From the NCBI RefSeq assembly GCF_963853765.1, contig NC_088861.1:21356281-21420280 (forward strand): DNA of 64,000 nt, in the 5' to 3' direction. Of the stretch, positions 3,682-64,000 are shown in pieces. The DNA comes from Magallana gigas (Eukaryota). The notes under the pieces were generated by a model. That model worked only from the letters and a program-made list of their open reading frames with translations, did no database searches and was not told where the DNA came from. Position 1 is the stretch's first letter. Each line of letters begins with the position of its first letter. The position numbers and the translations under genes were made by a program.

Positions 3682-3851
3682 CTAAAAAAATAATTGTTAT
3701 TTCAAACACAATTTTGCAGAAGTGATTAACACACATTTCAGTTTATGTCTGTAATAAATGCTTTTCCATGATGAGTTTACATGAACAGCATTTGTAATGG
3801 GAGTCTGATTCTTTTTCAAGTTTACATGGTGTTTAAAATAATTATAAAAAC

Positions 3852-5282
3852 AAGAGGCCCAGGGGCCACATCGCTCACCTGAGCAACAATTGCCTTAATT
3901 CTAAATCAAATTAGCATTTCAGTATCAAAATATCTTGACAACTAAGTACAGTATATCTTACTAAAACAAATTGAAAATCTGCCAATTTTTTCCATCTCTT
4001 TTTTTTTTGGTAAATACCAAGCCCCTTTTGTTATTCTACCTGTAAGAAGATTTTTCTCTATTCCTATGTACCCCCCCCCCCTCCAAAATTTCGTGGCCCC
4101 ACTTTTCTCTCAGGAATCATGGTTTCATCAAACTTAAATCTGCATAACCTGTGCTTTCACACTAAGTACTGAGTTTTGGACCGAAAACTTTCCCAGAATA
4201 TTTTTAAAGATTTTCTCTATATATTCCTATGTAAAAGTTCAAACCGCCATCAAAGCCCTGCCCTATCATTAGGGACTGATTTTGCACACTTGAATTTACA
4301 CTACCCGAGGATGCCTCTACACAAGTTTAAGCTTTTCTGGCCAACTAGTCTTTAAAAAGAAGATTTTTAAAGATTTTCTCTATATATCTATGTAAAAATT
4401 CATCCCCCATTGTGGCCTTACTGTACCCCTGGACTGTTATTTAAACAAACTTGAATCTATACGATCTGGGGATGCTTCAACTCAAATGTGGGCTTTCATG
4501 GCCTAATAGAAGATTTTTAAAGATTTTCTCTATGTATAAAAACTATCCCCCATTGTGGCCCCGCCCTACCCCCAGGTACCATGATTTGAACAGACTTGAA
4601 TCTACATTATCTGAGGATGGTTACACGCCAATTTGAGCTTTCTTGTTTTTGAGAAAAAGATTTTTAAAGATTTCCTCTAAATATTCCTATGTAAAACTTG
4701 ATCCCCCAATTGTGTCCCCACGCTACCCCCGGTGACCATGATTGTAACAAACTTAAAACTACACTATCTGAGGATGCTTCCACTCAAATATAAGCTTTCC
4801 TGGCCTGATAGTTTTTGAGAAGAAGATTTTTAAAGATTTCCTCTATAAATTCCTATGTTAAACTTGATCCCCCCTATTGTGGCCCCACCCTACCCACAGA
4901 GACCATGATTTGAACAAACTTGAATCTACACTACCTGAAGATGCTTCCATTTTAATTTGAGCTTTCCTGGCCTAATAGTTTTTGAGAAGAAGATTTTTGA
5001 AAGATTTTCTCTATATATTCATATGTAAAACTTGACCCTCCCCTGTGGCCCCTCCCTACCCGCGGTGACCATGATTTGAACAAATTTGAATCTACACTAC
5101 CTGAGAATGCCTCAACACAAGTTTAAGCTTTTCAGGCCGAATAGTTTTTGAGAAGAAGATTTTTGAAAAATACCAACAAATTTTCAATAATTTTCCGTGG
5201 CCCTTCATTTAAATAAACTGGAATCCCCTTTACCTAGTGGTGCTTTGTGCCAAATTTGGTTGAAATTTGCCCAGCGGTTCTT

Positions 5283-8100: not shown

Positions 8101-8448
8101 ATAGAAACAAGAGGCACAGTGGCCACATCGCTCATCTGAGCAACAGTATCTCTAACTCTGATCAAATTAGCATTACAGTCTCAAAATCAAAATATCTTGA
8201 CAAATAAGTACAGTAGATCTTGCTTGAGGGGGGGGGGGGGGGGGTGTCATGATTTTCAAAGCTTTGAATCGACCCGAGAATGCTTAATAAAAGTTTCAGC
8301 TCTCCTGGCAAAATGGGGTTTTTTTACAGACGATTTTAAAAAAATTCTCAAATTTTTCAATAATTCCTAATGATCTTCCCTTGATAAATGTTGTGGTCCT
8401 TTAATTTCACAATTTTGAATCCCCTTTGCCTAAGGATTCTTTGTGCTT

Positions 8449-19280: not shown

Positions 19281-20735
19281 ATGGATAAGAGTCAATGCAA
19301 AAAAGATACTGATCGAATGATTTCTTCCCAAAAAGACGTCAAAACCGGTGAATGGAAGGATGACATTCGTGAGTGGCCACAAGTAGAATATGGCGATATC
19401 TACAATTATTTGATTTTAAGTAGAGCATGTGACGGCGAAAAAATGAAAAATTACAAATCATTGGACAGTTACAATTATTTTAAAAGCGGTTCTGTCGGGA
19501 AAATTCTTCATTTTGTTATTCACAATACAGTTATTCTGAAATCTGAAGTGCGCCCGTCACAAAAAATAAATTCAGAGTTTCACAATGCATGGGTATTCTG
19601 TGATATGATCGGCACAATTCTAAACGGGGGATGTTCATGTATGGCTGGGAACAGTAAAACGTGCAGTCATGTAGGCGCACTTTTGTGGAAAATTGAGCAT
19701 GCTGTAAGGTTAGGTTTTACGGGAAAATCTTGTACAGATGAGCAGATGCAGTGGAATAGGGGTGCGACAAGAAACCTTGAACCAGGTGTTCTTGAAGAGA
19801 TGGACTTTAAAAAACCTAAATATGGCAGTGAGGTTAACAACAATACTGAAAAACCACAAAATACAAAATCTATCTTCCCAATGTTTGTATCACATCAATC
19901 TTTTAAATATTTTGTGGAAAACTCAGAACTTAAAGAATTATTTCTTTTAGAAAATTCACTTTTAAGTAAATCTATGCACGCAAATATAAACAAATCTCTT
20001 TTCGAATCTTCATCCGAGCCTCGTACTGAGCATACAGGTGAACTATCTTGTGAAAAGTGTTGTGCGTTTTATAACAGGTACATGTACATTAAACTTAATG
20101 ATGCCCAAATTCAATCGTTATCGATGGCAACAATTTCACAAAGTGAATCTGAATTGTGGCACAACAGTAGAAAAATAAGAATAACTGGCAGTAGTGCTCA
20201 CAAGGTTCCCGTTCGTGACACTACAAATAGTGATAACTTCTTAAGAGAACATATGTACCCTTCCTTCACATCAAACAAATTTACTAGACATGGACAAGAA
20301 GGTGAAGAGCCCTGGCTAAGTGTTTCCCCAGATGGAATAGTAACCAATGCTGATGGTTCAAAATGTCTTTTGGAAATTAAATGTCCAATACTTAAGAATG
20401 ATCAAACACTTGACAGCTTATTTACAATTGGTAAATATGATGTTGTGAAATCCTTGCAAAATGGTACATTATATGTTAAGCATAACAGTTCAAGGGGCTA
20501 TTACCTTCAAATGCAGTTAACTTTGCATGTAACACATATGCAGCTGTGCAAACTTGTTATTTGGACAACTAATGAATACAAGGTCATTGATGTACAATAT
20601 GACCAACAGTTTTGTGAAGCAGCTATTTCAAGACTATGTTGTTTTTACTTCAACAAACTTTTACCAAGAGTAGTTGATGACTTTGAATGTGGCAGATTTA
20701 AAATTAGTAAAAAATATGTTAAATTTTCTAACTGA
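19281..20735 (+). CDS. Intronless 484-aa ORF with a SWIM-type zinc finger (GGCSCMAGNSKTCSHVGALLWKIEH, CxCx(n)CxH) and a C-terminal YqaJ-like viral-recombinase / PD-(D/E)XK exonuclease domain (RITGSSAHKV ... VSPDGIV ... LLEIKCP)
   Basis: The full-length ORF is given in the supplied track. Domain calls rest on recalled family motifs. The ORF lies antisense inside an MVP intron and has no predicted introns, so it is probably transposon-derived or domesticated. Confidence 0.6.
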   Translation: MDKSQCKKDTDRMISSQKDVKTGEWKDDIREWPQVEYGDIYNYLILSRACDGEKMKNYKSLDSYNYFKSGSVGKILHFVIHNTVILKSEVRPSQKINSEFHNAWVFCDMIGTILNGGCSCMAGNSKTCSHVGALLWKIEHAVRLGFTGKSCTDEQMQWNRGATRNLEPGVLEEMDFKKPKYGSEVNNNTEKPQNTKSIFPMFVSHQSFKYFVENSELKELFLLENSLLSKSMHANINKSLFESSSEPRTEHTGELSCEKCCAFYNRYMYIKLNDAQIQSLSMATISQSESELWHNSRKIRITGSSAHKVPVRDTTNSDNFLREHMYPSFTSNKFTRHGQEGEEPWLSVSPDGIVTNADGSKCLLEIKCPILKNDQTLDSLFTIGKYDVVKSLQNGTLYVKHNSSRGYYLQMQLTLHVTHMQLCKLVIWTTNEYKVIDVQYDQQFCEAAISRLCCFYFNKLLPRVVDDFECGRFKISKKYVKFSN

Positions 20736-48171: not shown

Positions 48172-49781
48172 TGTGCTTTTGTGCAATCATTTTAGAATTA
48201 TAAGAGTTCTATTTGTATGAATTTAATTCATTTATTTTAGATCCATGGTTTTAATAACGATTTCAACACAATGACTATAAGTTTGTAAAGTTCACGATGT
48301 AATAAGATTTTTCGTTAAAATTTCGACACTATTTCACATCAATAAAGTTGTGTTTATTCTAAATGCTTGCAAAAAGTTACCGGCATTATCTCATTCATCT
48401 TTTTAATCAGGTTTTTTTGTACATACATGTATGTGTACCCGGTAAATAATTTCTTATTGCAAGTTAATACTTTGTGAAATTCCCGCATTTATAGAGTTGC
48501 TGAATTGTTCCCCGGATCCACGCACCGATAGTCTTGCGTGTAGTGTTTGTGTACATATCTACAGACAATTTTTTTGTTTGTTAGAGATTAGGAAAAATCA
48601 TTGAACTAACAAAGTATAAGTAAGATAAATTCAGACCATACACACGACGGGTTGTGATGAGTTACCAATCAGGTGTTCGCGGAAAGGTGTGAATAACGGC
48701 ATCTCGAGTACACCTGTTCAGACGTCCAAATGTACACACAGATAGTTGTAAATTCCAATGACACCTAACAAGACAGACAATAACACCTGTTGTGTATAGA
48801 ACCCAAGATGAAAGACAATGCTGTGTATCTGATCAGCTTCCGTACATCGCACGAGTGATTTTTTCATGTGAAATCACGAGGCCATTACCAGCAATACGGA
48901 AATAAAATTGAAAATTATTTTATGAAATGCGGGTATATTTTTAATAAATGTACAATGCTTGAATATAATTTAACAAGTCTAGAGTTTGTACATGTATTTA
49001 TTTATAATCTATAATATAAAAGTGATTTTTTTGTTTATTTATTGCTACATAAATAAATAGCTGACGTCCAAGTTATTCGAGTCACCCGTAATATGGGGTT
49101 GTTATTTACTACAGCACATCAACAGCACATGTTTTTAGAAAAACATGATCTGAAATGTTTTCATTTCTCATTTTTAATTGGTTTAAAGTAAGGCTGTAAA
49201 TTAATTGATAAATCAGAAAGTGTTTACAGATAACAGAAATAAGACGTTTAAGCTCCCGACATTTTAATAGGATCGTCAGTTACAACATCACGTGTGTTTA
49301 GAAAAAAAAACAAGATGAATTCAATTGATTTGAATTTTGATCATATATTAATTGATTATTAAATATTTTTGGTTAATTTATTTCAATTTATTTAAGAACA
49401 AATGAATTAAAAGGTACCCATTTACGTCGAGTTTTCAGATCACAAAAAATTAACTTCACGTTGACAGCCCGGACAATTTTCTGGGTCCGTGCAACATAAG
49501 TCGACATTCTTTTGTTTTTAAATATGAAAAGGATATATATGTTTCAACCCTTGTTTAGCCATAATTTCTTTATTTCTAAACATACTCTATTTCTATCAAC
49601 GTCTCAGGTAACGATATCCACGGAGTAACACAGTGGCCACGGAGTTACACAGGCGAACACGGTGCAACACGGGGCTTTTTCTTGAATTGTCCAATACACA
49701 TACACTGTGTCACACCGTGTGCACGGTGCGACACAGACCGTTTTCCACCGTGTTTTCTACACGTAGGGTGTCGGGATACTC

Positions 49782-50219
49782 GTGAGCTGTACTGTACATT
49801 GTTGTTCCGTTTACGAGAAACGAACTGAATCATTTAGATCGCAGCTTGAATCCGAACCTGATCCTCTGCTGCGTACAACCAAGAAACCTCATAATAGAGT
49901 TTCTGCACAAACAGTCAGTAACTGGATAAAATCTGTTATGTTAGATGCAGGTATCGATACATCAAGATTTCAAGCGCATTCGTGCCGGATGGTCTCTTCA
50001 AGCAAAGCGCATAATACTGGAATACCTTTAGAAGAAATTCTATCAAAAGCAGACTGGTCAAATGCGCGAACATTGAAAACATTTTATTTGCGCAATACTC
50101 CATCTGATATATCTTATACACGTAATGTTTTGAATATGGTGAGTTTGGTAATTTTCGGCTTTAAACATGCATTATTATATCTCACGGATATATTTGAAAT
50201 ATATTTGAAGATTTTGTGA
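49782..50219 (+). pseudogene. C-terminal fragment of the tyrosine recombinase of DIRS-like element 2
   Basis: PHNRVSAQTVSNWIKSVMLDAGIDTSRFQAHSCRMVSSSKAHNTGIPLEEILSKADWSNARTLKTFYLRN is homologous to the YR C-terminus of element 1 (HSTR...Y). Confidence 0.65.
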
Positions 50220-52411
50220 GGGCGCGAAGCGCCCGAAATGAAATATAAATTATATGATAATATTGTAGTGAGATATAATAATGTACTTCCCTCCCACCCT
50301 TGCCCGATTATTTGCTAAGGAGGGTGGTACTGATTTATTGTTTATGTATAAATATTACATTTCACATTACAGTTGGGTTAATTTGTGTCGTATGTGTTGT
50401 AGGAGGATAACTCTGTACCAACAAACGCCACGACGCTCAGTTGAGACAGTCTACAGTTAACTGTGGTTCTACGGCAACAAGAGTGACAGATGAAAAACGA
50501 TCATAGTGAATTGCTAAACATTCCTGACTAAGCAATTTGATGAGAATAATTAATATTTTTTAGATATTATATAAATTCTGTCAAAATTACATTTTGAAGT
50601 TTTCTTTTTATGGCTCGCATTGAAAGTCATTGATTCTATCTATCGAATGGTTAGGGTTTACCTGGGGCATGCGCATCGGGTTTCATTAACCTGAGTGATT
50701 TTTATCTATTTATAGGTAGTCACACTTTAAAGAGCTGTATTTTTATTCTTGAATTGAAGGTCAATGCATTATTATATCTCACTACAATATTATCATAAAT
50801 TTTATATTTCATTTCGGGCGCTTTGCGCCCTCACAAAATCTTCAACTTTAATTATTTGGATTTACCATATAAGTTTCCCAGGCAATGATACTCATTTTTA
50901 ACAGTTTCTAAAAGTAGAAACTACAGCTGCTTTTTGTTACTTTTCTTGAACAAGAGGCCCATGGGACACATCAATCACCTTAGCAGACAATGGCGTACAA
51001 AGGATATTATGTCATATTGCCCCTCGGTAGAAAAAAAAAGATTACAATAAAATGAACTGTATTCAAATTTTACACTTATTTTCCTACACTTAATCTTTGA
51101 CATTGTACCCTTATGAAATACAATTTTTACCAAAAATAAGATCCTATGCAAGATATAAAACTAAATTTTTGGTATGGGTACACTGTTAACTCCAATTCCC
51201 TTTATTTTAGTTCTGCCCCCTCACTTTATAAAATGATCAAATTATATAAGAGAATATGCATATATGTAGGTACATATTTATCTTCAACTACATTGTACTA
51301 GCTAGTTATTGTATTTTATTAAAAAAAAATTCCTACATGTGAAAGTAGAAAATCTCATGGCACTTGAATTAAGAACATTCAAAAATTTGATTGGTCTTCT
51401 GCTTTATAAACGATTGTTGTTTACCAGGCTTGAACTTGTGCGACGTTATATAACCTTGCTCACTTGATCCATGAATACACTTGAAAGAAAAATGTTATCA
51501 TGTGATATGTTAAAGGACTATTACATGTATAGTCAATGCATAGGCGTCGGAACTGGGTTAAGCAAATTCATCTTTGTCAGTTTGACCCGTTTGTCATGTG
51601 TCAACATTCAAACATTCCATTTATTATTTAAAGTCCTGGATACCTTGGAAGATCACTGTTAAACATATTATAAAAATTGTAATATCATATTCAGTGATAC
51701 TGTTGGTAAATCACCGGTATTATGATTGGGAAAACCATTGTGTTTGTAATTAAGTTAAATATATGTAGTACATGTAATTGAATTTCGTCAACGTGTGTGT
51801 GTATGTTGTGTTGTGAATGTGTTTTCTAGGTTTCAAATTTCTTATATCATATAAAAGCATATACAAGCACGAATCCAAGTCTTCGATCGTTATTTCTTTA
51901 CGACCCTGTGACAAATGTACTGTAGTAACAGAATTATGGATTGATGTTGAAGAATAGATTTTGAGACAGTTTGATTTATTAATAACATTTGATAAACAAT
52001 TTGTTCTTTTTAGAAAATATAAAAATAGGGAAATTTATAAAAAAAAATTTTAACTTGGTAATTCTTATTGTGAAGCAATATATTTTTTCTTGTAAATATA
52101 AAAGTAACACTAATCCAAATATACATGAATTAAAAACTGTTATATTATAGAAAGGCTTTTGACCGAAAAATATATGCTAATGAAAAATTGTAGATATAAG
52201 GAATATGAAATCTATAGTGAAAATAAGCTTTAGTGCTGTAGTATAAAAGGATAAATTGTTTCTTTATATAATTGTGTTTTTTCTATTTTGTTTAGAACTG
52301 CAATGGGTTTTTTTAATTTCTTTATCCGCTTTCAAGTATCCATGTAAAACAGGGTCCTATCCCGTGAATATGGTTTAAATATTATATACATATGTAAACA
52401 ATGCCCCTACC

Positions 52412-52453: not shown

Positions 52454-54845
52454 ATTTACTTTTACTACACACGAACTGTACAGTATAAAAATATTCAAAT
52501 AGTCAAAAGTTTTCCAATATAATTGTATCAACTAATGTACCAGGTATGTCACATCTGTACATGTATATGTTGTGAAAGTAAAAAATTCAATTAAAGAAAG
52601 ATAAAAAATAAAGTCATCATCAACGTATATGTATGCATGTTGCATACAGAAAGTCGGGAAGGGGTGGCTTTACAGTATTGCAGTGTACTTGACAGTCCGG
52701 TATAGATCAGATTAGTTTATTTTAGGCAAAATGCATCTGTCAGGTAAAATTAAATTTTTAAGTGTGTTAAATCATAGTTTATAAACAATTTTTAATTAAT
52801 CTGTGTACCTGTGTATATTCTGTATTTGTTTGAAATATTTCCTTATTATTTTTCTATCTGTGATTTAACAATTATAGCTGCGTGGATCAAATTACATGCT
52901 TAGCCTGTTGTTGGGCAATATTTCTATCTACAAAGTTGGTCAGTGTTATCATATTACAATGTACTAATAACATGCATTAGATAAGAGTAATCAGGGGATT
53001 GATACCTACAGGGGGGAGTCTGGTATTTATGTTGATTGTTTAGAAGAAGAAGCAATTGTGAAGATGCTTGATTAAGAAGCTATTATTTTCATTCAAATCT
53101 ACTCCTACCTTTACTATTTGTACTGGTGTGCTATTATGGATTAATGCAGTAAGTGTGTATTTGCCGAGGTACATAACTACGTAACTTATGAGATACTTTG
53201 TGAACTGAGTTTTGTGCTTACAAGAAGTCATGGGGCCTAAAAGAGCGTCCCGACCCGCGCCATACAATCCAGACTTGCCAGTGAATTGGACGGCAGCAAG
53301 ACTAAAGGAAGCTTTGGATTCTCGCGGAATCGCATACTCCTCTAACGCACGAAGATCGGCGTTAGTTGGTATGTACAGAGAGTGAAGTCCCAGGTTCTAT
53401 AAAAAGAACTTCGAATGATAGTGCGCGTTCCCATGATCCTTCACACCAAAACATCAATGGCGACTCGAATGATAGGCAATCCCCTGATGCCCTACACCAA
53501 AACAACAATGGCGATCACAGTGTACTAATCGATCTCGAGTCGAAATTATCTTCAACAGTGCAGTCGCTGCAACAAAATGTAGTACATCTTACATCACGAG
53601 TGAACTCGTTGCATGCAACTGCTATAAATCCATCGTCGACTGCAAGGAATAATGATGAACCAGGAAGCCAAACTCCGGCGAATTCAACTACAACCACAAT
53701 GAATCCCGAGTCTTCTTTCACACTGGACACGGCCTTTGCCCTATTTCCGCGGCAGCTGCAGGATCGCCAACACAGGGCCCGGAATTGAAGAGGACGAGAT
53801 TCGGATTCGCAGCAGAATCTCTCCTTCTGGTAGAGACCATCTCGCCTCATCTGTGCCTCCAAATTACATCAGGTAAGGATGTCAATTTAGCATCCTTGTT
53901 AATACCATATTTCTCTCCCCCTGACGAAAAAGATGATAACAAGAAGCCGGATAAACGACTGCAGAAGTTGCTAAACATCGGTGAGTTCATTCAAGCTTTC
54001 GGAAAATACAAAAATATAATGTGTCCGTATATAAGCATATCCCCAAAGAAGACAGGAGTTAGATTTGTACGATAGGGATATCATTGACATGGCTACCGGC
54101 TACACAGGCAATGGGTTCTACGAATATCATCGTCAATTCAGTCTTATGGCCGCTTCACATCTTAAGTATAATAACATTCTCATTGACTAGTCTGTGTGGA
54201 ATAACACTTTATTTTGTAATTTGTTTGCGAATGCCAGACCGCAGTCATGTGCAACCTGCAACAGTACGCTGCACTCTACAGGCTTTTGCCCTATTACCGA
54301 CAAAGTTAGGGATAAGAGAAATGGGGACATGGATTTTTATGGACGTCGGAGAGAATTTCATGAAGGTAGAGAAATATGTAACAACTTCAATGGCTTCAGA
54401 GGCTGTCACATACCTAGATGCAAGAACGCCCACATCTGCATCAGTTGCAGAGGAGACCACTCTTAACACAATTGCAGCTCAAAAAATCCCAGCAGCCCCA
54501 CACAAATGGGGCTTTCAAAAAGATGTAACATCCAGTTTCGATAATAAGTAACAACTCCCATCAACATAGACAGTCTTCAAAATCTTCTACAACATCATCC
54601 CGACACCCAATTTACAGAATATCTTATGAATGGTTTATGTTTTGGCTTTCATACTGGCTTTCAGGATCTTCCAAAGAATTCTCTGGAATGCAAAAATCTA
54701 AAGTCAGCTTCATTAAACTCGGACAGCGTTACAGAGATCGTAAACTAAGAACTAAACCTGGGTTACTTGTATGGTCCATTATGCTATTAGACTATAATTA
54801 AATTATGCGGGAAAGGAGCATCACTTATTAAAACCGACATTACTG

Positions 54846-55635
54846 ATGCCTTCAATATCATGCCTATATCATATGAGTTATGGCCATATCATGGAATTAA
54901 GTGGGATGATAAATACTATTTTTTCAAGCGCCTTGTCTTTGGAAGCAGATCAAGTCCAAAGATCTTTGATGCCCTGTCTTCCGCTGTGTGTTGGATTGCA
55001 GAGAAAAAATACAAGATATCATACCAAATGTGCTGCACCTGTTGGATGACTTCCTAGTTGTGGTCCCACTATTTGATGATGCTCATAAAGTGATGGAGAG
55101 ACTCCTGGGGATACTGGTATTTAGAACCCTCGGGATTCCTCTATCGGAGAAGAAAACCAAAGGACCTTGTACAGAACTAGAATACCTTGGGATAATATTA
55201 GACTCCTGGAACATGGAAGCCAATTTACTGTCGGAGAAGATTGATCATATCTTATCTATCGATAATTCCTTCAAAACACGCAAATCATGTACAAAGAGAG
55301 AATTGCTCAGTTTGCTGGGACATCTCAATTTTGCTTGCAGAGTTGTTCTGCCAGGTCGATCTTTCATTTCTCACCTGATAGCCTCATCAACCACAGAGGA
55401 GCCGCTTCATTTCCATGTCTACTTAGACAGTTTGTGTGGGGACAACGTTGCTATGTGGTCAGATTTCTTAAAAAGCTGGAATGGAGTGTCCTTTTTCATC
55501 GACGATAACATGACAGTCAGGCTGCGGATATGCAGTTGTTTACAGACGCAACCCTTACATCCTTTGGAGGCTTTTACCAAAATAAGTGGTTTCAAGGAGA
55601 TTTCCCTGACAACATTTCCAAGGAAAACACATTGA
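54846..55635 (+). CDS. Reverse transcriptase module of element 3, split across two overlapping frames (54846-55057 and 54988-55635)
   Basis: F..LVFGSRSSP and LDDF motifs. Confidence 0.55.
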
Positions 55636-56255
55636 TGGTTCTTTTTGAGCTATATCCTATCGTTATGGCCTGTCTTCTGTGGGGTGATACTTGGCCAAGG
55701 AAACGCATTCTTTTTCATTGTGACAACCAAACAACTGTTGACATTATTAGGAAAGGATGCTCAAAAGTTACAAGCATAATGAAACTAATGAGAACTTAAA
55801 CCTTTCATGCAGCCTGTAACCATTATATCATTCATGCTGTTCATATTGATGGCGTCAAGAACACTATTGCTGACTCTCTCTCTCATACCAGATGTAGAAG
55901 TTTCGAACCCTGGCACCAGAAGCCGACCTGATGCCAACACCATGCCTGGAACATTCGCAGCTAATGAAGGACTGAGGGAGCAGTTAATAAACCAATTATG
56001 GGATGCATCCTTAAGCAGTTCAACCAAGAGGGCCTACAGTTCAGCGTTACAATGTTTTCTGACATTCATTTCTATGAGTGGAATTGTGTTTTAATCCTAC
56101 TGTCTTCCAATAGTAAATGAAACTTTGCTTAATATGTATTTTGTCACTCATTGTAAATCTGTTTTAAAACTCAAGTATGACACTATCAAATTGTATTTAG
56201 CAGGTTATTTAGTAGGGAATGGTTTTAGTATATTAGAGCAGGTCATGGAGATTTT

Positions 56256-56876
56256 ATGAATAACTTTAACCAGCTACAGTATGTTTTGCGAGGGGTGAAA
56301 AAGTCTCAAAACAATGTCTCTAACAACAGATTACCTATTATTGCCAGTATATTGAAACAACTGTGGCATGAACTTGACAATGGAGCTTTTTCTCCATTTC
56401 TAGATCTGATGTTGAAATGTATGTTCTCCTGTGCCTTTTTTTCGGGTTTTTTAGATGTGGTGAAATTACTTGTAAAAAAGCAAACTCTGTACATTTTCAA
56501 AAAAAATTTTGATGTTAGCTTTGGATGTAATTGTTTTGTCCTGAGGTTGAGAATGTCCAAGACCGATCCATTCTCACACGGTGTTGATATTACAATATTT
56601 GAGAATGATGTTTTCAAACCTGTACATAACATGTGTCTATATATGCAGACCAGAAGATCTTTGTCGTGCTCTCCACATTCACCTTTGTTCATTACGGATG
56701 AATTCAATCATGGACTTATGCATAGAGATAAATTTATTCACCATCTGAGATCCTTACTCATGCGAATTGGCCTGAACGATTCTAGATATGCAGGCCACTC
56801 CTTCAGGATTGGGGCAGCCACAGCTGCAGCCGCAGCAGGCGTTGAAGACTATGTGATTAAAGATCTGGGTAGATAG
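56256..56876 (+). CDS. Tyrosine recombinase ORF of element 3, 206 aa
   Basis: C-terminal GHSFRIGAATAAAAAGVEDYVIKDLGR resembles the HxxR...Y catalytic tail of YR enzymes. Confidence 0.5.
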   Translation: MNNFNQLQYVLRGVKKSQNNVSNNRLPIIASILKQLWHELDNGAFSPFLDLMLKCMFSCAFFSGFLDVVKLLVKKQTLYIFKKNFDVSFGCNCFVLRLRMSKTDPFSHGVDITIFENDVFKPVHNMCLYMQTRRSLSCSPHSPLFITDEFNHGLMHRDKFIHHLRSLLMRIGLNDSRYAGHSFRIGAATAAAAAGVEDYVIKDLGR

Positions 56877-57296: not shown

Positions 57297-57720
57297 TTGC
57301 AGTTGGTTTATTCCTTTATGCTCACTGGGACCAGCCCCGAGCGCAATCTGTTCTTGTCTCGAGGCCCGCTGGAGATCAGCCCCGGGTCATGCTTCGTTCT
57401 AATTTATGCTCGCTGGGATCAGCCCCGAGCGCAATCTGTTCTAGTCTTGAGGCCCGCTGGAGATCAGCCCCGGGTATGCTTTGTTCTAATATATGCCCGC
57501 TGGGATCAGCCCCGGGTTATGCTTCATTCTAATTTATGCTCGCTGGGATCAGCCCCGAGCGCAATCTGTTCTAGTCTTGAGGCCCGCTGGAGATCAGCCC
57601 CGGGTATGCTTTGTTCTAATATATGCCCGCTGGGATCAGCCCCGGGTCATGCTCTGTTCTAATTTATGCTCGCTGGGATCAGCCCCGAGCGCAATCTGTT
57701 CGTCTTGAGGCCCGCTGGAG
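57297..57720 (+). repeat. ~60-bp minisatellite in about 7 copies, organised as ~120-bp dimers
   Basis: Unit ccgctgggatcagccccgagcgcaatctgttctagtcttgaggcccgctggagatcagccccgggtatgctttgttctaatatatgc, read directly. The ORFs at 57297-57662 and 57493-57708 are artefacts of the repeat. Confidence 0.85.
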
Positions 57721-58079
57721 ATAAGCCCTGGGCATGGGTTTTGTGTCGTGGGAAGGAATGAGTAGCCCCCAAGCGCCAAACTATTTACATATGTATTTTG
57801 GGTGTTGACAAATATATGTTTATTATTGTTTTATGTATGATTGTATTTCGGTTTGGAGCGTTTGTATTTTTAGCTATACTAAATGTTTGGGTATAAGACC
57901 CAATAAATTTTTTGCTTCCTCTTAACTCTTGTTAATTGTTTATGAACAGATCATTAGTATAGGACTACAACATTGCATCCTCAAATAATTTGATGAAGTG
58001 AAGCCATTAATCATTACCTTTTGATTAAAGTAGAGGTTTATGCATACTAGGTATATTTAGGAAACAATTTAGGAAATTC

Positions 58080-60479: not shown

Positions 60480-61500
60480 AAAGATCTGGTCTACAAAACC
60501 ATGAATTCAGTTTTCCTTTCAGGTGTGTGGGAGTAAAGAAGATAATTTTTTAACATTATATGCATCAACACCTCTTAGCGCTCTACATCCATTTCCGCCC
60601 TGCCCTAGAGTCAAAACCCATACTCCAGGGGACATGAAAATTTAAATTTCAGTAGACTAGAACTTCCTGGTAAACGTAATTATAAGTCAGTTTTTTATAC
60701 AGATGTGTGAGAATAAAGAAGAACATTTTAAAACATATGCATTAACACTATATTGCCATATTGCCCCCCCCCCCCCCCATGTTCTAAACCCCTGACCCAA
60801 GGGCCATGAATTTCACAATTGAGGTAGAGGAGTTAGTGGAGTTATATGGGAGTAGAGAAGATTTTCTAAGATTAAACACATTTTTACTATATGGCCATAT
60901 TGGCCCCACCCTTTAGCCTGAACCCCTGACCCAGGGGTCATGCATTTCACAATTTGGTAGAGGGCCTCATGGTCATCATAACCATGCATTTAGTTTTTAA
61001 CAAATATATATGGGAGTAGAGAAGAGATTTTCTAAAAATTAATACATTTTTACTATATGGCCATATCCCCCCCCCCCCCCCCTCGAGCCTGAACCCCTGA
61101 CACAGGGTCATGAATTTCACAATTTAAGTAGAAGGCTTCATGGACATCATAATCATGTATTTAGTTTTTAACAAATATCTTTGGTAGTAGAGAAGAAGAT
61201 TTTCTAAGATTTAATACATTTTTACAATATGGCCATATTGGCCCCACCCTAGAGCCAAAACCCCTGACCCAGGGGCCATGAATTTCACAATTTTGGTTTA
61301 AGGGCTTCATGGACATCATAACTATGTAACCACTTTTTTCCTCACATGTGTGGGAGTAGAGAAGAAGATTTTTGAAAATTTGGCTATTTTTTTGCATATT
61401 TGGCCCCACATGTGGTGCCCTGGGGGTGGTAGAGTCATGAATTTCACAATTTAGATTCCTCTTACCAAAGAGATGCTTCACATAAAACTTACACCAAACA
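60480..61500 (+). repeat. ~180-bp satellite in about 5 units, each with a palindromic core cccctgacccaggggccatgaatttcacaatt.ggtagagggcttcatgg
   Basis: Units at about 60650, 60840, 61020, 61200 and 61380. The core motif is also present as a single copy at 23815-23880. Confidence 0.75.
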
Positions 61501-61917
61501 TGGTAACAATCAGCCTTGTAGTTTTTAAGAAGAAGTTAGAAATGTAAATTGTTAATGCATGACGGCGGACGAAAACGGACAGCAATAGTAAATTCAGGGT
61601 GACCTAAAAAAAATTGAATTTATAAGGAGTCTCTTCTTTTTGCTTGTCCTGATTTCAGATTATTCTGTCCTATTTCCTTTAAAAAACGATGCTACATGCC
61701 TGTACTTAACAACTTTACTGTGCATATATAATGGCAGCAATGCAGAGTTTGAAATTAAAGTTATATTTTTTGTAATGTTAGCGCAATCGTGATAAATCCG
61801 AAATTCCGAATTTACACGCGAGTTGCTGTCTTCTGTGTACCTGTAAGATAAGTCTGTTGGTTTGACGGTGTTATGTTTGGTTGTCAGACATTCAGTGTTA
61901 CCAAATAGAACAGATAC

Positions 61918-61955
<38 letters not shown>

Positions 61956-62019
61956 GAACAATAGGTATGATAAAATCAGCTTAATGGAGTCATAATACAA
62001 ACAATCTGGACAATGTACC

Positions 62020-63374
62020 GTATTTTCCCGACGATAAGTCGGTATTTTTTTTCTCTGAAGCAGAGCACTCGACTTATCGTCTTGATCGACTTGTCAAAGG
62101 CTTGAGGTCAGAAAATTGTGAAAATAGTATTAAAAACCTTGGTTTTAATCATCTTGAGCAGGCTGTGTTATTGAAAATTACGTTGTTGAATTCAATGTTC
62201 ATCTTTAATTATTATCATTTTCACTCATCTGTTGACACTAGAGTACATATTAATAACAGTTATTGAACAATGGTGCATTGTCTTTAATCAATTAAAAGTT
62301 TTACCGTTCCGTTTTTATAAACACATTGTGACATGATTCCATATATCACTATAGTAGGAAGATAATATTGCGCAGAAAAATTGAAACCAAACTTGGATGG
62401 AAAAAAATATTGCAGTAGGTCCGGGGAATGTTTCAAAGTATTATTATCTTATTAGTAAAGAGTTGTTAGTGAAAAGTATAAATAAGAAATATTTTATGGT
62501 CAAAATCAATTTTAAAATACGTAATCGGCAATTATCAACTCTACTGTTTATACGGTAGACTGATCCCGGTTGTGTTAATAATCTTGCTAAGGCTGACATC
62601 TATAGGCCTAAGGCAATTTCACTCCCTGTGTACATAAAGAGTACCGTTATAAGAGTGATTATAGTTCATTAATTAATTATTGTCCAATTCTTTATAAAAA
62701 ATTTATGAAACGTATGTATGTCGTATATAGTCATTATCAAGTCGTACAAATGATCGATCTATTCTAACAGTGTCTCTGTAAAACAATAGCGTGTAACTGT
62801 ATTACTGGATACAAAGTAAACAAGTTTCATCAAATCATAGTAATTGCTAAGCTTTCTGCACTTGAAATCCCCCTTTGAAGTCCGACACGAGACAGGTGCA
62901 TGCCTCTGACACCGGAAATTGTTAAACAAACATTGACCACGCGCCGAGTCAACAGGTGGCTGGTTACGTAATGGCGAATACACTGGCGATGGTTATAGTG
63001 GATAATTATTTTAATGCATGGGAATAAAATATTTCTGTCAAAGTAAGTTTAGTTTTGCATAACACGCGATATCAGGAATTGTTTACAATGCAAGCGACTT
63101 TGTAGATGTTGTCGGTATTTGAAAATATGATGCATAAGTATAAAAAGTAATTGTCTAAATGTTAATCATTAATAATAATTGGTAGCAATATCGGGGACAT
63201 AGTGGTATTATACACTGATAATGTTACTGCAGTTTTATACACCATTTTGAAGCGATAAGTTCGACGTGTCGTGTGAATCGACGTATCGTAGGATTTTGTT
63301 AAAATTTTGGCTAAAAATGAGCAATTCGACGAATCGTCCGCATCGACGATTCGTCGGGAAAATACGGTACAATA
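62020..63374. mobile_element. 1.35-kb non-autonomous TIR element (MITE-like) with terminal inverted repeats taccgtattttcccgacga / tcgtcgggaaaatacggta, inserted into a dispersed repeat
   Basis: TIRs at 62020-62045 and 63349-63374. Sub-terminal tcgacg-type repeats. No transposase ORF. The flanks 61925-62019 and 63375-63500 are contiguous in the paralogous uninterrupted copy at 23921-24130 (ggacaatgta|taataatacatgg), which is consistent with a TA target site. Confidence 0.7.
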
Positions 63375-63506
63375 ATACATGTAGATCCTGTATAAATAAA
63401 ATCCATTTTCCCCCCTGGATATTCTTATGTTTATAGTTATTAGTCCCTTTTCTAATAGGATGATTTTATAATCATATCACATGTTGAGTATTGCAGTTCT
63501 CAAACA

Positions 63507-64000
63507 AGAGGCCCAAGGGCCACATCGCTCACCTGAGCAACAATTGCCTAAATTCTGATCAAATTAGCATTACAGTATCAAAATATCTTGACAACTTAGT
63601 ACAGTAGATCTTTCTTAAAAAATTTGAAAATCTGCCATTTTTTATCCACCTCCTTTTTTTTGGTAAATACCAAGCCCCTTTTGTTGTACCTGTAAGAAGA
63701 TTTTTCTCTATTCCTATATACCCCCCCCCCCATTTCATGGCCCCACTTTTCTCTAGGGAATCATGGTTCAATCAAACTTAAATCTGCAAAACTTTCCCAG
63801 AATATTTTTAAAAATTTTCTCGATATATTCCTATGTAAAACCGCCATCACGGCCCCGCCCTACCACTGCATAGGGACTGTGATTTTGAAAACTTGAATTT
63901 ACACTACCCGATGATGCCTCTACACAAGTTTAAGCTTTTCTGGCCAAATAGTCTTTAAAAAGAAGATTTTTAAAGATTTTCTCTATATATTCCTGTATAA
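63507..64000 (+). mobile_element. Head of another composite satellite-carrier element (63507-63780) and the start of its satellite array, truncated by the window end
   Basis: Head caagaggcccaagggccacatcgctcacctgagcaacaattgcc..., followed by the poly-C tract and ttttctctagggaatcatgg as in the copies at 3852 and 25955. Confidence 0.55.

Follow-up and report, generated by a model that had tools for sequence, protein, structure and literature searches.

The segment at positions 62018-63367 is very probably (roughly 0.88, in our estimate) a non-autonomous class II DNA transposon of the cut-and-paste, terminal inverted repeat (TIR) type, inserted into a dispersed repeat. A TIR search and BLAST revealed a single copy of it in the window, i.e., the whole 64-kb stretch of DNA that was analysed. 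The TIRs, the exact breakpoints, a net gain of 2 nt at the insertion site, subterminal repeats and the absence of coding capacity were observed directly. The element is a new, or at least unrecognised, member of the ordinary non-autonomous TIR transposons, which are routine for bivalve genomes. It is worth little beyond annotation, and no question of transposition mechanism is challenged or opened by it.

Ends of the element and its empty site

The first-pass annotation had proposed a TIR-bounded insertion of 1.35 kb at 62020-63374. The insertion itself was confirmed, while its coordinates proved to be off by 4-5 nt. The features that define it are as follows.

62018-63367, + strand (orientation arbitrary): element core, 1350 bp, non-coding, with no counterpart in the paralogous copy at 23904-24105
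62016-62017: left TA copy of the target-site duplication (a single TA in the paralog, at 24001-24002)
63368-63369: right TA copy of the target-site duplication (the same single TA in the paralog, at 24001-24002)
62016-62034, + strand: left TIR, TA-CCGTATTTTCCCGACGA, a 17-nt core plus TA
63351-63369, - strand: right TIR, the perfect reverse complement of the left TIR
61919-62015, + strand: left part of the interrupted host repeat, beginning with the 45-nt head AACAAGAGGCCCATGGGCCACATCGCTCACCTGAG; 91.8% identical to 23904-24000
63370-63470, + strand: right part of the interrupted host repeat; 63371-63470 is 82.9% identical to 24004-24105
23904-24105, + strand: uninterrupted ("empty") paralogous copy of the host repeat, with the insertion point at the TA at 24001-24002

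The perfect TIRs of about 19 bp reported earlier were recovered at 62016-62034 and 63351-63369. The TIR, TACCGTATTTTCCCGACGA, is 19 nt long without a mismatch, and both copies sit exactly at the breakpoints defined by the paralog. When the 64 kb was searched for this sequence with up to three mismatches allowed, two matches were found, one at each end of the element (0.01 expected); two matches were reached in none of 100 shuffles of the window. A repeat finder reported inverted-repeat arms of 28 nt at 89% identity. Two bases of each arm are flank, and the inverted repeat of the element itself is therefore 26 nt long, with three mismatches.

The ends were fixed by comparing the filled site with the second copy of the host repeat, which is a paralog (13% divergence) and not an ortholog. 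BLAST of the flanks against the window matched 61919-62015 to 23904-24000 (91.8%) and 63371-63470 to 24004-24105 (82.9%); since these matches adjoin at 24000/24004, the two flanks abut in the second copy. The flanks had been predicted to align with 23921-24130, and they were indeed collinear and contiguous with that region, but the similarity stops at 63470/24105, not at 63500/24130. After in-silico excision of the element together with one TA, a single continuous HSP was obtained against 23904-24105 (86.8% over 205 columns). All removal registers around the junction were scanned by alignment with free end gaps. A gap-free alignment to the paralog was obtained only when exactly 1352 nt (1350 + 2) were removed, while removing 1350 nt (neither TA) or 1354 nt (both TAs) cost a 2-nt gap. 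We conclude that the insertion brought 1350 nt plus a second TA. The left junction of the filled site reads ...ctggacaatg-TA-CCGTATTTT..., the right junction ...AAAATACGG-TA-caataatacatgt..., and the empty site ...ctggacaatg-TA-taataatacatgg...; the filled and empty sites differ by a C/T substitution directly 3' of the TA.

A TA target, suggested by the first reading of the sequence, agrees with the TA on both sides of the element and the single TA of the empty site, with some ambiguity of register. The junction falls in a GTAC palindrome, in which five registers are equally good, and for this reason one copy does not separate a TA duplication, a 3-bp duplication of GTA or TAC, and a duplication-free T^A insertion. 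The inverted repeat is symmetric in two of the five registers, namely a TA duplication around a CCG...CGG core, and an A...T-tipped element inserted at T^A with no duplication; the 3-bp GTA and TAC registers shift the TIR by one base and make it asymmetric. Of these readings, a TA duplication is the simplest and the conventional one.

A dispersed repeat was interrupted by the insertion. Eight copies of its 45-nt head, AACAAGAGGCCCATGGGCCACATCGCTCACCTGAG, which includes the perfect palindrome GGCCCATGGGCC, are present, all on the + strand:

3847-3890, 8105-8148, 23904-23946 and 25953-25994, + strand: ~45-nt head copies (BLAST)
43422-43460, 50949-50991, 61919-61962 and 63499-63544, + strand: ~45-nt head copies (BLAST)

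The insertion thus lies nested within repetitive sequence, and no gene is interrupted by it. The heads were seen to precede at least two different bodies of ~200 bp, A-type at 23904 and 61919 and B-type at 3848, 25953 and 63499, the B-type bodies being ~90% alike. The arrangement of head and body looks like a Helentron/HINE flank (cf. PMC7492417). The paralogy of the filled and empty loci extends further upstream, where a partial satellite monomer at 23817-23875 matches monomers at 60785-61316. Between monomer and repeat head, the filled locus has ~445 extra bases (61475-61918 versus 23899-23904), in which no obvious TIR or target-site duplication was seen; they may stem from a second indel or from another variant of the repeat.

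Internal repeats and coding capacity

Repeated motifs and inverted arms were found near both ends of the element.

62068-62100, + strand: left copy of a 33-nt subterminal unit, comprising two TCGAC subunits in 17-nt phase
63260-63292, + strand: first right copy of the 33-nt unit (repeat finder, TCGAC positions)
63325-63357, + strand: second right copy of the 33-nt unit (repeat finder, TCGAC positions)
62030-62081, + strand: left subterminal hairpin, in which GACGATAAGTCG (62030-62041) pairs with CGACTTATCGTC (62070-62081)
63327-63356, + strand: right subterminal hairpin, in which CGACGAATCGTC (63327-63338) pairs with GACGATTCGTCG (63345-63356)

The tcgacg-rich subterminal repeats described in the first-pass annotation are specific to the element. 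With at most one mismatch allowed, the window contains six occurrences of the 13-nt motif TCGACKWWTCGTC (0.21 expected in 64 kb), and all six lie within the first 66 or the last 92 nt of the element. The six TCGAC cores are all on the + strand, in the same orientation, and form three pairs (62069 and 62086; 63261 and 63278; 63326 and 63343), the members of each pair being 17 nt apart. Both hairpins have a perfect 12-bp stem, which starts 14 nt from the element end on the left and ends 13 nt from it on the right. The innermost part of each TIR forms one arm of a stem, and its partner is the nearest 33-nt unit. As DNA, the left end folds at -13.1 kcal/mol (z = -3.05 versus shuffles), while the right-end 130 nt, for which the stem is also predicted, folds no better than chance (z = -1.65; 10 of 200 shuffles match it). 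A TIR accompanied by several subterminal sites is the layout expected of transposase-binding sites.

The ends of the element contain 7-9 CpG per 100 nt, against 1-4 across most of the interior. No tandem array was detected within 62016-63369 with TRF. The interior is AT-rich apart from a stretch at 62816-63015 with a GC content of 0.40-0.45 and nine CpG in 200 nt (up to six per 100 nt), which includes the palindrome TTACGTAA. No signal was obtained for this stretch in Pfam or Rfam; conceivably it is a captured fragment or what remains of a promoter.

The earlier statement that the element has no ORF with transposase features was borne out. Its longest ORF is 74 aa and its longest stop-to-stop frame 82 codons, and a comparison of its ten longest frames with Pfam, at E values up to 1, gave no credible match; the sole listed match was Ge1_WD40 (E = 0.032; 13.6 bits versus a cutoff of 29.5). 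A phmmer search with the 82-aa left-end frame returned no match among 1.84 billion representatives, and a homology search with the right-end 72-aa ORF gave no candidate. Used as exact-match proxies for further copies, the 72-aa and 74-aa ORFs were not on record. Nothing in the whole window reached the gathering level in Rfam; at E <= 1, two sub-threshold chance matches to bacterial sRNAs fell inside the element. The window contains no tRNAs.

Searches of viral, metagenome and prokaryote collections with the terminal sequences gave chance matches, and neither a second copy nor an autonomous partner turned up. The 17-mer CCGTATTTTCCCGACGA had four single matches in viral_contigs, all in GC-rich phage contigs and without a TA or an inverted partner, and the 19-mer had four single chance matches in JGI metagenome contigs. 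For TACCGTATTTTCCSGAC, two matches were found in viral_contigs and 83 in prokaryotic genome_contigs, all of them single or direct and none extending beyond ~24 nt. Two ENA loci of related bivalves, reached via the reverse transcriptase (RT) of a DIRS-like retroelement in the window and belonging to a different genome (GC 39%), contained no copy of the element. Literature searches for the TIR, host-repeat head and satellite strings returned primer coincidences or nothing. Putative teleost repeats that would start with ...CCGTATTTTCCGGACTATAAGTCGC... and continue with an inverted GCGACTTATAGTCC would mirror the tip and hairpin of the element; the resemblance carries no weight.

Superfamily assignment and alternative origins

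The element most likely belongs to the IS630/Tc1/mariner (ITm) superfamily, at somewhat better than even odds, because TA duplications define this superfamily and bivalves have no richer DDE superfamily. Bivalve genomes abound in class II elements and MITEs, and TcMar is the largest curated DDE group there, with 332 of 762 families (PMC10294476). ITm elements are defined by TIRs and a TA duplication, and subterminal repeats occur in some of them (bioRxiv 10.1101/656579). The element shares with bivalve non-autonomous ITm elements (e.g., the Mariner-N families of Crassostrea gigas) short TIRs, a TA on both sides versus one in the empty site, repeated internal motifs that resemble binding sites, the lack of a transposase, and a host clade dominated by TcMar. 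It differs from them in the CCG tip of its TIR, and its link to an ITm transposase is putative. The tips of classic Tc1, mariner and pogo elements, usually of the CAGT or YYAGG type, also differ from the CCG... of the element. It is longer, at 1350 bp, than classical Stowaway-like MITEs, which are commonly below ~800 bp; a Stowaway-like MITE was rejected on size, and "non-autonomous element" is the better term.

In the proposed mechanism, a transposase encoded elsewhere would bind the 17-19-nt TIRs, and probably also the phased 13-nt TCGACKWWTCGTC motifs, excise the element and integrate it at a TA dinucleotide, which gap repair of the staggered cut would then duplicate. Both the mobilisation in trans and the enzyme class and superfamily are what we infer. 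Perfect TIRs between host flanks that have diverged by 8-17% indicate that the insertion postdates the duplication of the host repeat.

One further ORF of the window was taken into account in the assignment:

19281-20735, + strand: uninterrupted ORF of 484 aa with a C-terminal YqaJ-like exonuclease domain (Pfam E = 2e-7)

Among other cut-and-paste origins, we consider it unlikely that the element is a non-autonomous TIR transposon of another superfamily with a 2-3-bp duplication, either CMC (2 bp in the Mirage type, 3 bp in the CACTA type), which is the chief competitor of ITm, or another group with 3-bp duplications. CACTA-like elements typically carry many subterminal repeats, and the element, with its many short, phased repeats that lie in both orientations near both ends, resembles the non-autonomous members of CMC (CACTA/Mirage/Chapaev) in this respect; a CCG tip is, moreover, atypical for ITm. 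The CMC tip consensus is of the CAC(T/A) type, however, while the element begins with CCGTA, not CAC... As for the junction, CMC duplications are 2-4 bp long (PMC4482050), a range that includes the one seen here, and the GTA and TAC registers are as compatible with the empty site as TA is. Yet in the 3-bp registers the TIR is off by one base, whereas in the TA register it is perfectly symmetric, and a TA duplication fits ITm better. CMC elements are also rare in bivalves, with two of 762 curated families versus 332 for TcMar (PMC10294476). Membership in the ISL2EU/PHIS superfamily appears highly improbable. ISL2EU elements occur in molluscs, make a 2-bp duplication and carry a YqaJ protein as a second ORF in autonomous copies; in ISL2EU, as in some further DNA transposons, a YqaJ ORF stands beside the transposase (PMC4482050), and the window has such an ORF at 19281-20735. 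Their duplication is, however, AT within A-AT-T (PMC4482050), while the site here is G-TA-T(C), in full caatg-TA-t(c)aataat, and ISL2EU was rejected on this account. Outside the element, no sequence like its TIR was found in the window, the surroundings of the YqaJ ORF included, and no link between element and ORF was seen. The other PHIS groups duplicate TWA, ANT, CWG or TNA, or insert without duplication between AAA and TTT, and none of these fits. It is rather improbable, though less so than ISL2EU, that the element is the first sighting of an uncatalogued bivalve lineage with a non-Tc1/mariner transposase that inserts at TA (or at T^A, without duplication); its marks could be the CCGTATTTTCC tip, the 12-bp hairpin inside each TIR and the 17-nt-phased, unidirectional TCGAC repeats.

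Two further readings dispense with a cut-and-paste insertion at 62018. A rolling-circle origin as a Helentron-derived non-autonomous element (HINE) would suit the surroundings, as the window is rich in HINE-type context (~166-bp arrays and palindrome-bearing flanks). Oysters have abundant HINEs, in which short inverted repeats stand beside complementary repeats and palindromes (PMC7492417). The inverted repeat of the element, paired with a complementary hairpin partner nearby, loosely recalls the Cg_HINE layout of subTIR plus IR and subTIR plus palindrome (PMC7492417). HINEs, however, make no target-site duplication and target TT within oligo-T; their 3' subTIR is followed by a palindrome, and central tandem arrays are usual (PMC7492417). 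The element shows a net gain of 2 nt at TA and has neither a central tandem array nor a microsatellite. Its inverted repeats are truly terminal, with both hairpins inside them, and host sequence resumes at once. A HINE/Helentron origin was rejected by the junction, both in the duplication and TT target and in the subterminal position of the repeats, and can hardly be credited for the element; Cg_HINE/Helentron-type elements probably form the host sequence that received the insertion. In the other reading, the host repeat originally contained the 1.35 kb, and the copy at 24001 lost it by deletion or transposon excision. Comparison of paralogs alone gives no polarity, and the empty site reads TATA, conceivably two retained TAs followed by a 2-nt loss; this retained-TATA version costs an extra 2-nt gap, however, compared with a single substitution under the insertion model. 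Since a perfect TIR lies at the breakpoints to the base, the segment is a TIR element under either polarity. Against ancestry of the 1.35 kb also speaks the absence of anything like the element from the three B-type units and from the remaining six copies of the 45-nt head, as do the perfect TIRs, which make the element look younger than the duplication of its 8-17% diverged flanks. A deletion in the paralog was rejected on the junction evidence and is, overall, very improbable.

The insertion of a non-autonomous TIR transposon that we favour is a clean case of nested transposition, in which a DNA transposon has entered a repeat associated with satellites or Helentrons. Curation of non-autonomous class II elements in bivalve repeat libraries is still poor (PMC10294476). 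Since the paralogous empty site fixes the ends of this copy to the base, it makes a good seed for a family consensus in such a library.

Satellite arrays and other elements of the window

The window is eukaryotic DNA, with a GC content of 34.9% and a CpG observed/expected ratio of 0.68. Apart from the element and its host repeat, it contains satellite arrays and retroelements. The arrays with a period of ~166 bp, and one related to them, were located with TRF.

129-1831: ~166-bp-period array, monomer CCCCCATTGTGGCCCCACCCTACCCCCGGGGACCATGATTTGAACAAACTTGAA...
4195-5164: ~166-bp-period array of the same monomer
26304-27666: ~166-bp-period array of the same monomer
60843-61380: related array with a 171-bp period

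By monomer length and dispersed short-array organisation, the ~166-bp arrays appear to match the HINE-borne oyster Cg170/HindIII satellite (PMC7492417). A ~166-bp satellite array was seen within ~150 bp after the B-type units at 3848 and 25953; the unit at 63499 runs towards the end of the window.

The retroelements are DIRS-like, with RT, a Dam-like domain and a tyrosine recombinase.

~29850-34510, - strand: DIRS-like retrotransposon, apparently intact
33177-34238, - strand: gag-like ORF of this retrotransposon
31099-33168, - strand: its RT, with a weak match to a Dam-like methyltransferase
30290-31498, - strand: its tyrosine recombinase
44617-50219, + strand: further cluster of retroelement-like ORFs
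53366-56876, + strand: further cluster of retroelement-like ORFs

The host is a bivalve: among named relatives, the RT is closest to sequences of the oysters Saccostrea cucullata (73%) and Crassostrea gigas (68%), with Mytilus and Pinctada next (~50%). At the DNA level, the retrotransposon at ~29850-34510 is ~70% identical to an ENA bivalve contig. The two + strand clusters are probably degenerate copies of the DIRS/Ngaro type; their scanned ORFs gave no RT or recombinase match in Pfam at E <= 0.001. A fragmented RT/RNase H-like series was noted at 46183-47308, and a resemblance to tyrosine recombinase was seen at the C-termini of the ORFs at 49782-50219 and 56256-56876. A GC-rich tandem array lies at 57315-57736, with nested periods of 43, 88 and 130 bp (GCCCGCTGGGATCAGCCCCGGGTCATGC...), in which the 130-bp unit repeats at 95% identity.
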